Position numbers and translations under genes: made by a program | Notes under the pieces: model-generated | Told to the model about the DNA's origin: nothing | The model's database searches: none | The model's input: the letters and a program-made list of their open reading frames with translations, nothing else | Source of the DNA: a virus | Lineage: Duplodnaviria > Heunggongvirae > Uroviricota > Caudoviricetes | Direction: 5' to 3' (one strand) | IMG/VR virus record: IMGVR_UViG_3300032167_000002 | Span: 338,312-402,311 of that record | Length of the DNA: 64,000 nt | Part shown: positions 9,222-10,206 of the stretch, piece by piece | Layout: the number at the start of each line of letters is the position of its first letter | Position numbering within the stretch: position 1 is the stretch's first letter

Positions 9222-10206
9222 TTATACTGTATCCAAATTCTTTCGCCTTGAAATAATCCTGCCAGTAGTCCTCACGCGCATCGAGCGCAGAGCGATCGCA
9301 GATTTCGACGACCTCAAAAGTGAAATTCTCTGGGCCGGCCGCAATCATTGCAGGATAGAGTTTGTTGCGGGTTGGCGTTTCTGCGCCTACACCACGCTTA
9401 ATATGCTATTTCCAACGGTCTGCTAAATTAGCAGCCTAACCAACATAGCATTTACCAGTTTCAATTTCTGTAATTTTATAAATTCCAGTTTTTACTCCTG
9501 TACCAATTACTCGACCAATAAGGTCGGTGGTTGGTTTTTCGTAATAGCATTTCCATATGACTTTATTCAAAGGCTCCTTATCTCGCAAATAGGGTTCAAC
9601 CTATCGCAATAATTCAATTTCGTGAATATCTGCGTCAGATAACTAAATGCGATAAAAAGCCTACTAATCTTTCATTTCAGCGGCTCTCTTGGCTGCGGCA
9701 ACTGCGGCGTCATTTGTAGCTCGCATAACAGCTACATTATCAGATAACTCTTGAAAAGCTTCTAACATATCAGCAACAGTTTTATCATATTCAGTCTAAA
9801 AACCAATTATATTATCTTGATATTTTTGGTTTTCTTCTTGAAGTGATTGCGCGAGTTTCTCCTATGCAGCCTACATACGAGACGCATAGAATAGTTCAGC
9901 GGCCTCTTGAGCCTACTTTTCCATAGCTGAGATACTGCCATTGAGGCTCTCCAACTACTCTTTAGCAGATTGGTTTTGAATATCCAGCTTGATTTTTTCA
10001 GATTTTAGATAATCATTTTGATTGAATAAATCTTGATTATTCTCTTCTAAAATCTTATTTTCTTCTCTTAATTGCTCGTTTTTCATAGCAATCGACTTGT
10101 CGAACTCCTGGACGGCAAATAGCCGCTATCTAAACAGTCGATATGTGATAAAGCCGCCTAATCCGGCAGCAACGAGCACAGAGGCGAGTAAAATCAACCA
10201 TTCCAT
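9222..10206 (-). CDS. Membrane-anchored coiled-coil protein with a C-terminal GIY-YIG nuclease domain, containing 13 in-frame TAG codons. The ORF track missed it.
   Basis: Manual translation gives MEWLILLASVLVAAGLGGFITY (transmembrane helix), then a coiled-coil region, then ...GIYKITEIETGKCYVG[TAG]AANLADRWK[TAG]HIKRG...NFTFEVVEICDRSALDAREDYWQDYFKAKEFGYSIK, ending at a TAA. The frame is continuous across all the TAGs. Confidence 0.65.

Follow-up and report, generated by a model that had tools for sequence, protein, structure and literature searches.

A TAG-dense gene for a predicted membrane-anchored, coiled-coil-stalked GIY-YIG nuclease in the replication module of a recoded gut phage

Introduction

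Described GIY-YIG enzymes include the homing endonuclease I-TevI, Cfr42I and T4 endonuclease II (EndoII, DenA), the last being a phage nuclease that starts host-DNA degradation for nucleotide scavenging (PMC2764454). I-TevI nicks sequentially, and EndoII and Cfr42I work as oligomers (PMC2764454). For gut phages using genetic code 15, in which TAG is read as Gln, recoding was proposed to hold back the translation of structural and lysis genes (Borges et al., bioRxiv 10.1101/2021.08.26.457843); a term search gave no occurrence of 'nuclease' or 'GIY-YIG' in that preprint. Here, a TAG-dense gene for a predicted membrane-anchored GIY-YIG nuclease is described, located on the minus strand at positions 9217–10206 of a 64,000-nt stretch of phage DNA (positions 338,312–402,311 of IMG/VR record IMGVR_UViG_3300032167_000002; Caudoviricetes), which was analysed at full length and is called the window below. 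A literature search returned no description of a membrane-anchored, coiled-coil-stalked phage GIY-YIG architecture.

Results

Reading frame and decoding

TAG-bearing frames were found by taking TAA and TGA as sole stops, which gave the following gene:

9217–10206, minus strand: complete nuclease coding sequence (CDS), ATG at 10206, 329 sense codons and a TAA stop at 9217–9219

A first-pass annotation, made from the letters of the window, had reported a gap without open reading frames (ORFs) at 9205–10257, and under the standard code the longest ORF there is indeed at most 53 amino acids (aa). It had further proposed a 328-codon protein at 9222–10206, on a strand that was not named, with 13 in-frame TAGs (about 4%). 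The long frame was recovered, with its extent corrected: it lies on the minus strand, and the last Lys codon and the stop are found beyond 9222. Translation gives 12 TAGs instead of 13 (3.6% of codons), at codons 27, 84, 98, 112, 115, 137, 181, 182, 188, 202, 257 and 267. A stop other than TAG, which the first-pass annotation had named as a refuting observation, is absent, the count of TAA and TGA inside the frame being 0. A TAA/TGA-free frame of this length was obtained in 0 of 20,000 composition-preserving shuffles of the region, and the remaining five frames each contain 13–27 stops of mixed types.

Among the 25 Gln-type codons of the gene, 12 are TAG (48%). The decoding of TAG was tested on the codons of TAG-free homologue genes, the database proteins themselves having been called with TAG as Gln, and the test was confined to codons 257 and 267 of the catalytic domain, the stalk positions being too variable for comparison. 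These two codons are CAA or CAG in 21/21 and 20/21 of the TAG-free genes, respectively. On this codon evidence TAG is decoded as Gln in the nuclease gene, and 9217–10206 is a functional gene of a TAG-to-Gln recoded phage. Confidence in its identity and in the architecture given below is very high.

Architecture of the encoded protein

The nuclease protein is built from four parts:

10135–10200, minus strand: N-terminal transmembrane helix, residues ~3–24, Kyte–Doolittle 1.9, predicted N-out/C-in
9661–10131, minus strand: coiled-coil stalk, residues ~26–182 (about 155 residues), AlphaFold2 helix 2–181, 8 of the 12 TAGs
9490–9660, minus strand: conserved helical subdomain, residues ~183–239, AlphaFold2 helices 191–201 and 211–233, TAGs at codons 188 and 202
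9220–9489, minus strand: GIY-YIG nuclease domain, I-TevI type, residues 240–329, Pfam match, TAGs at codons 257 and 267

The transmembrane helix, coiled coil and GIY-YIG domain had all been named in the first-pass annotation, and each was recovered: the first by hydropathy at residues 3–22, the second as one continuous helix over residues 2–181 of the AlphaFold2 model (pLDDT, the predicted local distance difference test, mostly >90 there) with a strongest hydrophobic periodicity of 3.5 residues, and the third by its Pfam profile. The model, with an overall pLDDT of 93.5 and a GIY-YIG core at 241–318, was computed from 118 divergent homologues; with an input of 30 close homologues the C-terminal half fell to pLDDT <50.

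In 124 of 131 family representatives the N-terminal helix is hydrophobic, and the N-tail ahead of it has a median of 2 residues. Lys and Arg number 0.1 ahead of the helix vs. 3.5 behind it, and the positive-inside rule is followed in 113 of 114 sequences. Because the basic residues lie behind the helix and not ahead of it, an N-out/C-in topology with the nuclease in the cytoplasm is predicted. The protein would thus be a single-pass membrane protein, with stalk, subdomain and GIY-YIG domain predicted to be cytoplasmic and the 2-residue N-tail predicted to be outside. The stalk is rich in Gln and variable in sequence, its length being kept across the family (interquartile range of protein lengths 317–334 aa), and its weak profile matches to ATP-synthase subunit b reflect architecture only. 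The adjoining helical subdomain has the consensus FYRLxLS..D..EI..LR.I.P.LR..E.LNKVIWKxYYEKP.TDLIGRV and a mean majority-residue frequency of 0.60, vs. 0.29 in the stalk; no Pfam, PDB-sequence or fold match was found for it.

The nuclease domain was matched by Pfam GIY-YIG (PF01541) at residues 240–321 with 37.1 bits (cut-off 22.6), and by TIGR01453 with 67 bits (cut-off 56) over model positions 1–87 of 215 only. Residues Y243, Y254, R264, H268 and E312, the equivalents of I-TevI Y6, Y17, R27, H31 and E75, are invariant in 118 sequences at 30–51% identity. Its fold includes the three-stranded sheet with flanking helices that is typical of GIY-YIG proteins, and I-TevI was the closest structure in a fold search. 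The homing-endonuclease models PHROG 314 and PHROG 5123 and the PADLOC UzuA models match the GIY-YIG segment only, and no NUMOD, IENR1, zinc-finger or helix-turn-helix (HTH) DNA-binding domain was detected in the protein with Pfam. The profile search recommended by the first-pass annotation thus succeeded for GIY-YIG and failed for T5orf172/MUG113 (PF10544), which is absent from the Pfam matches even at E ≤ 1; DUF4041 was likewise undetected. Strong purifying selection acts on the C-terminal 150 residues, where conservation is far higher than in the stalk. The nuclease domain clearly belongs to the GIY-YIG superfamily, closest to I-TevI.

Distribution and gene order

Full-length homologues of 325–331 aa were found at 66–97% identity, and the family comprises >5,200 matches among 90%-identity clusters from gut metagenomes, and 442 clusters at 50% identity with E ≤ 1e-30. 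Among the members read, a single one bears a name, 'hypothetical protein'. A megablast of window positions 7000–13000 against deposited phages gave no match, and in tblastn searches with three family members Phass-1 was, beyond the bare GIY-YIG domain, the sole deposited phage matched. This metagenome-derived, 136-kb genome belongs to a different lineage, and its homologue carries 8 TAGs. In the Phass-1 record (OQ749652.1; locus L005) the homologue, at 8473–9453, was deposited as two 'hypothetical protein' CDSs (8473–8613 and 9019–9453), because the 8 in-frame TAGs were not read through there; two tRNA-CTA genes and a tRNA-Leu lie ~400 nt downstream of it. In a scan of genome collections the family was carried by contigs of metagenome-assembled genomes (MAGs) only, many of them phage-genome-sized and mostly binned with Clostridia or Bacilli, and by no isolate or prophage. 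The phage is a member of an uncultured gut clade whose contigs, and apparently genomes, measure about 130–200 kb and whose hosts are probably Firmicutes.

The nearest neighbours of the nuclease gene, with ThyA and DHFR identified by synteny with Pfam-annotated loci, are:

10266–10541, minus strand: p91, upstream 91-aa gene, the most conserved neighbour (65–100% identity; nuclease 37–93%)
8927–9205, minus strand: p92, downstream 92-aa gene, starting 11 nt after the nuclease stop, with a strong Shine–Dalgarno (SD) sequence
8035–8934, minus strand: ThyA, overlapping p92
7544–8038, minus strand: DHFR, overlapping ThyA

The gene order is kept among relatives and reads GyrB, RNase H, GyrA, (ClpP), ligase, a 63-aa gene, p91, nuclease, p92, ThyA and DHFR, followed by p120, YorF, AAA_24, YorH, DnaB and then RecJ. 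With p91 as an independent anchor, and counting loci with enough downstream sequence, the nuclease gene follows directly after p91 in 79/79 loci. Its identity to the window protein correlates with the identities of GyrA, ligase and p91 (Spearman rho 0.5–0.6), and non-recoded relatives possess the gene too, without any TAG. The fixed place and the divergence that tracks the neighbours therefore point to a vertically inherited core gene and not to cargo; from gene order and sequence comparison, it is placed as a fixed core gene within the phage replication and nucleotide-metabolism module. The separately acquired cargo gene suspected in the first-pass annotation is contradicted by these results and by a base composition like that of the neighbours (GC 0.40; GC at third codon positions, GC3, 0.37; both inside the neighbours' range).

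The p91 protein has an acidic tail, an antisense shadow ORF and a winged-helix (z-alpha) match below threshold (19.4 bits, cut-off 21), and is likely an abundant early DNA- or RNA-binding protein. No Pfam family was matched by the p92 protein, in which a Walker-A-like SRGSGKTS motif is present; its gene is fairly TAG-rich in recoded relatives (12/51 Gln-type codons). In relative L001 its place directly downstream of the nuclease gene is taken by a 194-aa gene with 5 TAGs.

TAG load of the nuclease gene and of other genes

The first-pass annotation had also held that the TAG density of the nuclease gene exceeds that of the flanking replication genes, and this was upheld in the window, where 12 of 25 Gln-type codons compare with 0 or 1 TAG per neighbour: DHFR, YorF, AAA_24, p91, ligase, GyrA and GyrB contain none. 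In the comparison with neighbours that it had proposed, TAG load is therefore the outlying property and base composition is not. Homologues in other recoded phages, which it had suggested seeking, were found in number. A total of 82 distinct loci were compared, of which 28 are TAG-free in all compared genes (non-recoded) and 54 contain TAGs. The TAG fraction of the nuclease gene exceeds that of its pooled neighbours in 54/54 recoded loci, in lineages down to about 40% identity; pooled, TAG makes up 318 of 1160 Gln-type codons in the nuclease gene (27.4%) vs. 173 of 4555 in the neighbours (3.8%; Fisher p = 6.5e-114), and 0.2% in ligase, GyrA and GyrB. The TAGs of the nuclease genes are spread over 107 alignment columns in lineage-specific sets and were therefore gained repeatedly. 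TAG stands at the first Gln-type codon in 21 of 46 genes, where the TAG fractions of the genes themselves predict 12.6 (P ~0.004, a value that ignores relatedness); the first TAG lies at a median of codon 33.5 and within 50 codons of the start in 38 of the 46.

Elsewhere in the window, TAGs are found in the following genes:

20380–22455: tail-fibre-like gene, 11 TAGs, no PHROG match, labelled by resemblance to the 23823 gene
23823–25610: tail-fibre-like gene, 5 TAGs, PHROG
25781–27217: tail-fibre-like gene, 6 TAGs, no PHROG match, labelled by resemblance to the 23823 gene
27630–30155: multi-domain endolysin, 4 TAGs, PHROG
30227–31489: PhoH, 1 TAG, PHROG
60324–61421: tail-fibre-like gene, 2 TAGs, PHROG

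For the two genes without a PHROG match, the label was given because they resemble the 23823 gene in their N-termini, leader and upstream block. In tail-fibre genes, TAG accounts for 43–56% of Gln-type codons. The window thus has the code-15 pattern, with a heavy TAG load on structural and lysis genes and a light one on replication genes; the sigma factor, nicotinamide phosphoribosyltransferase (NAMPT), RNA ligase and the homing endonuclease at 18993–19745 have no TAG. Neither a tRNA nor an Rfam family was matched in scans of the window, so the suppressor must be encoded in another part of the genome. Suppressor tRNAs next to the nuclease gene were considered as a general feature and rejected, since they were seen for Phass-1 only.

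Expression signals

Upstream of the nuclease gene the following elements were located:

10215–10251, minus strand: intrinsic-terminator-like hairpin and T-run, GGGGTAAGAT–8 nt loop–ATCTTACCCC, ending 16 nt before the ATG
10609–10637, minus strand: promoter TTGACA-17-TATAAT before p91, 12/12 matches, nearest consensus promoter upstream of the nuclease gene
10872–10900: next perfect consensus promoter

The first-pass annotation had placed the gene start immediately after a hairpin and had noted the lack of a promoter, and both observations stand: the terminator-like stem-loop (10222–10249; −21.3 kcal/mol for a 76-nt segment, z = −3.0) is followed closely by the ATG, and no sigma-70-type promoter was detected from the hairpin to the ATG. 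An SD sequence is likewise absent between terminator and ATG, in a window where 38 of 54 genes have one of AAGGAG type. Among 50 distinct upstream regions of the family, non-recoded lineages included, a terminator-like hairpin ends 6–24 nt before the start codon in 43, and an SD-like motif is present in just 6 (absent in 44). A terminator without SD that is kept across the family is thus a family trait and not an insertion scar.

A consensus scan gave no usable promoter between 10609 and 7547, and hence none specific to p92, ThyA or DHFR. These genes are most simply transcribed by read-through across the nuclease ORF, which is probably co-transcribed with them and gated at translation alone, as judged from the arrangement of signals.

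Further upstream features were considered and rejected. The ideas of a leaderless mRNA and of a promoter lying within the terminator were discarded, as no −10 element was found at workable distance in the upstream sequences. At 10195–10215 (minus strand) the nuclease start codon would be paired in a 6-bp hairpin, UUCCAU/AUGGAA, which is also present in relative L003; as a general feature this hairpin was dismissed, being confined to the close lineage of the window and not kept in L001.

The TAG-rich tail-fibre and endolysin genes have in common a leader, TTGAGAGAARGGAG(A)TTTTATAT-ATG, with 4 matches against 0.06 expected by chance, at these sites:

20358–20371, plus strand: shared leader
25621–25634, minus strand: shared leader
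25758–25771, plus strand: shared leader
30163–30176, minus strand: shared leader

An A/T-rich upstream block (…AAGAAAAAAAAACATATAT.GATTTTTTATATATAATTAGAAATA…) is a further feature common to the tail-fibre genes. Block and leader together are candidates for a late promoter with its leader, perhaps used with the phage sigma factor encoded at 49434–50354 (TAG-free). The same block and the TTGAGAGAAAGGAG leader were looked for upstream of the nuclease gene and are absent there.

Further genes of the window

Genuine homing endonucleases occur in this phage group. At 18993–19745 (minus strand) a canonical I-TevI-like GIY-YIG homing endonuclease of 250 aa with C-terminal DNA-binding modules and no TAG lies beside gyrB, and at 1123–3104 of L001 gyrB is broken into separate ORFs by two GIY-YIG endonuclease genes, which carry 3 and 4 TAGs.

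An 826-aa, TAG-free protein encoded at 57724–60204 (minus strand) matches the Pfam families MVP_shoulder (86.5 bits, residues 498–615) and Vault_3 (30 bits) and has no PHROG match; its gene has a strong codon bias, which leaves a 781-aa antisense shadow ORF. An MVP-like protein is unusual in a phage. A 506-aa flotillin-like protein is encoded at 32467–33987 (minus strand), with an N-terminal transmembrane helix, an SPFH/Band_7 domain (78 bits) and a long helical region rich in Ala, Glu and Lys. Taken with the membrane-anchored nuclease, these two proteins hint at phage-organised membrane-associated structures.

A TAG-free set with high GC3, resembling auxiliary-metabolism and RNA-repair genes, is encoded at 39601–41346, 46407–47825 and 62536–63984 (all minus strand). 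Its members are NAMPT (459 bits), an RNA ligase (204 bits) and a 482-aa PHROG-850 'RNA-binding protein' (396 bits).

Discussion

Proposed mechanism

It is proposed that the phage holds an active, probably toxic nuclease at a very low level and delays its production by means of a terminator, the lack of an SD sequence and amber codons. The upstream terminator would admit only read-through transcripts from the early p91 promoter, and the missing SD would lower nuclease output in a genome that otherwise uses strong ones. In recoded lineages the frame is broken by many TAGs, the first usually within 50 codons (27 here), so that host ribosomes would make just a short membrane peptide until the phage amber-suppressor tRNA comes into play. 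Oligomerisation is expected of the stalk and would pair the single-active-site GIY-YIG domains for double-strand cleavage, by analogy with the known GIY-YIG enzymes I-TevI, EndoII and Cfr42I; the paired domains would be held roughly 20 nm beneath the membrane. The most likely role would be a delayed breakdown of non-phage (host) DNA, supplying the adjacent enzymes of deoxynucleoside triphosphate (dNTP) synthesis.

Translational gating by amber suppression, taken as a step by itself, is considered rather probable. The composite explanation, in which a repressed, amber-gated nuclease is joined to the proposed role, stands only slightly better than even. Its weakest step is the role: host-DNA breakdown feeding dNTP synthesis is favoured because dNTP-synthesis neighbours recur and because T4 EndoII offers a precedent, and it is put forward tentatively, by analogy. 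Such neighbours are found in three phage groups, as ThyA and DHFR here, as ThyX and dUTPase/dCTP deaminase (Pfam DCD) in relative L008, and as NrdD, NrdG and ThyX in Phass-1. A bolder extension, doubtful as a whole, would see amber recoding as a single-gene translational timer on a toxic nuclease ORF without SD that shares its read-through transcript with TAG-poor nucleotide-metabolism genes and is kept silent, with the help of a TAG close behind the membrane anchor, until the suppressor tRNA appears, the stalked, membrane-tethered GIY-YIG enzyme, of a class not yet described, clearing host or competitor DNA after the code switch as a core function of a large uncultured gut-phage clade.

Several observations weigh against this proposal. 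As regards timing, ThyA (8035–8934, minus strand) and a DnaB-like helicase (3334–4395, minus strand) each contain one in-frame TAG, so that at least some proteins of the replication phase need suppression too, suppression may already run by the time of replication, and 'after the switch' is a safer wording than 'late'. The code switch may precede or accompany DNA replication and not belong to the late phase alone, in which case 'delayed' would mean middle rather than late; the nuclease gene, having neither the leader nor the block of the tail-fibre and endolysin genes, is not of the transcription class of those late genes. As regards decoding, no suppressor tRNA was found either in the 64-kb window or, in 33 relatives, up to 10 kb from the nuclease gene, and the code switch in this genome is deduced from codon patterns alone. 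A lightly recoded relative, L006, has only 2 TAGs in the nuclease gene, near the level of its neighbours, and in a gene of low expression TAGs could have built up neutrally instead of under selection. The terminator and the absence of promoter and SD come from consensus scans, which are blind to phage-specific promoters, and the window has a sigma factor of its own. In the catalytic domain the equivalent of I-TevI N90 is Ser (S327, invariant among close relatives), and GYSI stands in place of GYNI. Against the host-DNA role, there is no visible means of sparing phage DNA, ThyA and DHFR implying ordinary thymine, and T4 EndoII acts early and without a membrane anchor.

Alternative explanations

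The nuclease could instead serve superinfection exclusion or competition, cutting incoming phage or mobile-element DNA under the membrane of the infected cell. The predicted N-out/C-in topology puts it there on a stalk whose length is conserved, the resident genome would have entered before the nuclease is produced, and the PADLOC models of UzuA, from the single-gene defence Uzume, match the nuclease domain (E 2.6e-9). That match is, however, limited to the GIY-YIG part (model positions 184–275 of 278), and exclusion would be most useful in the first minutes of infection, when the nuclease seems repressed and dependent on amber suppression. As there is also no prophage or lysogeny context among the genome matches (MAG contigs) and no evident determinant sparing the phage's own replicating DNA, this role is judged unlikely, although it is the best placed of the alternative functions.

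A serious rival to the gating claim, with a similarly small share of the probability, is that the TAG load has no regulatory meaning and reflects drift in a gene of weak expression for which there is no need until the switch, TAG and CAA/CAG being nearly interchangeable once suppression operates and genes needed earlier being kept TAG-free by purifying selection. The free turnover of TAG positions over 107 columns would follow from drift, as would a TAG fraction (27% pooled, 48% here) like that of tail-fibre genes (43–56%) and the mere 2 TAGs of L006; terminator and lack of SD are already present in non-recoded lineages, so that tight repression is older than recoding. Neither the surplus of TAG at the leading Gln-type codon (21 genes, with 12.6 expected; P ~0.004) nor the early first TAG (≤50 codons in 38/46) is predicted by pure drift, and the excess over the neighbours is seen in 54/54 loci. 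Even if drift were accepted, the pattern shows that the nuclease protein is dispensable before the switch.

It is improbable that the protein is a membrane-tethered factor of replication, recombination or DNA maturation that anchors or processes replicating phage DNA at the membrane, where its build would resemble that of phi29 p16.7, or that nicks or resolves branched concatemers before packaging in the manner of T4 endonuclease VII or T7 endonuclease I. The gene does occupy a fixed slot in the replication module, flanked by ligase, gyrase and p91 to one side and by ThyA, YorF, AAA_24 and DnaB to the other; a maturation nuclease needed only after replication would fit dependence on the code switch, and a RuvC-like gene lies nearby in L008. 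Against this, the replication proteins proper are TAG-free (ligase, GyrA and GyrB 0.2%), no recognisable structure-specific or DNA-binding module is present, and known resolvases are soluble.

A free-standing homing endonuclease, other selfish or acquired cargo, or a decaying pseudogene is largely refuted and retains a very small probability, since the homing-endonuclease matches (TIGR01453 with 67 bits, PHROG 314 and 5123), I-TevI as closest structure and the genuine homing genes of the phage group (at 18993–19745 here and in gyrB of L001) are outweighed by the position fixed in 79/79 loci, the lack of NUMOD, IENR1 and HTH modules, a C-terminal catalytic domain behind a transmembrane helix and stalk, a GC content like that of the neighbours, purifying selection on the C-terminal 150 residues with invariant catalytic residues, and a frame broken by TAG only, never by TAA or TGA.

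Comparison with known systems

The family shares with I-TevI the invariant equivalents of the catalytic residues Y6, Y17, R27, H31 and E75, with an invariant Ser replacing N90. In I-TevI and the TIGR01453 homing enzymes the catalytic domain is N-terminal and is followed by DNA-binding modules, whereas here it is the C-terminal domain and is preceded by a transmembrane helix, a 155-residue coiled coil and a novel helical subdomain; the linker, zinc finger and HTH DNA-binding module of I-TevI are all lacking. Homing endonucleases are sporadic and mobile, unlike the nuclease gene, a fixed core gene in 79/79 loci. With no DNA-binding module, an inverted domain order and a non-sporadic distribution, the protein lacks the defining traits of a homing endonuclease.

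T4 EndoII resembles it as a phage-encoded GIY-YIG nuclease without a separate DNA-binding domain; EndoII is oligomeric, and the nuclease gene described here adjoins dNTP-synthesis genes. EndoII is, however, a soluble protein of 136 aa that acts at the onset of host-DNA breakdown, phage DNA being spared by hydroxymethylcytosine (hmC). The present nuclease is membrane-anchored, appears delayed and has no evident DNA modification at its side, and the functional analogy is a tentative one.

The single-gene defences Uzume (UzuA) and PD-T4-3 likewise have a C-terminal GIY-YIG effector in a protein of ~250–310 aa. The matches are to positions 184–275 of 278 in PDLC03973 (35 bits, E 2.6e-9) and to positions 214–307 of 310 in PDLC03974; the nuclease part alone matches, and a full-length match to UzuA is lacking. 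UzuA belongs to bacterial defence, whereas the nuclease is a phage core gene and the copies found all lie on phage-like contigs or phage-sized MAG contigs.

ATP-synthase subunit b offers an architectural analogy without homology, an N-terminal transmembrane helix with a long helix, the effector here being a DNA endonuclease domain. RNase Y and EzrA are also membrane-tethered cytoplasmic proteins with an N-terminal transmembrane helix and a long helix or coiled coil. To the GIY-YIG nucleases, the protein adds a membrane-anchored, stalked architecture. If the proposed mechanism is true, it would be a candidate for host-DNA clearance or for phage–phage competition in the gut.

In the code-15 gut phages described so far (Borges et al., 10.1101/2021.08.26.457843; Phass-1, PMC10607447), TAG read as Gln is concentrated in structural and lysis genes and replication genes mostly keep the standard code, as in this window; the Jade and Sapphire clades, with genomes of ~200 kb, are similar in size to the present phage. 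Late-gene recoding is thus already known. What is new is the architecture, the size and uncharacterised state of a family whose gene is missed or fragmented by standard-code annotation despite its abundance in gut metagenomes, the conserved terminator without SD, and the recoded island itself. In contrast to the known recoded gut phages, this island is a single nuclease gene inside the replication module, found in many lineages with independent gains of TAG and apparently co-transcribed with TAG-poor genes. One TAG-saturated gene among such neighbours in dozens of lineages offers a natural test of recoding as a timer and, if the mechanism is true, TAG load would be a sequence-only readout of the genes that uncultured phages need only after the switch.

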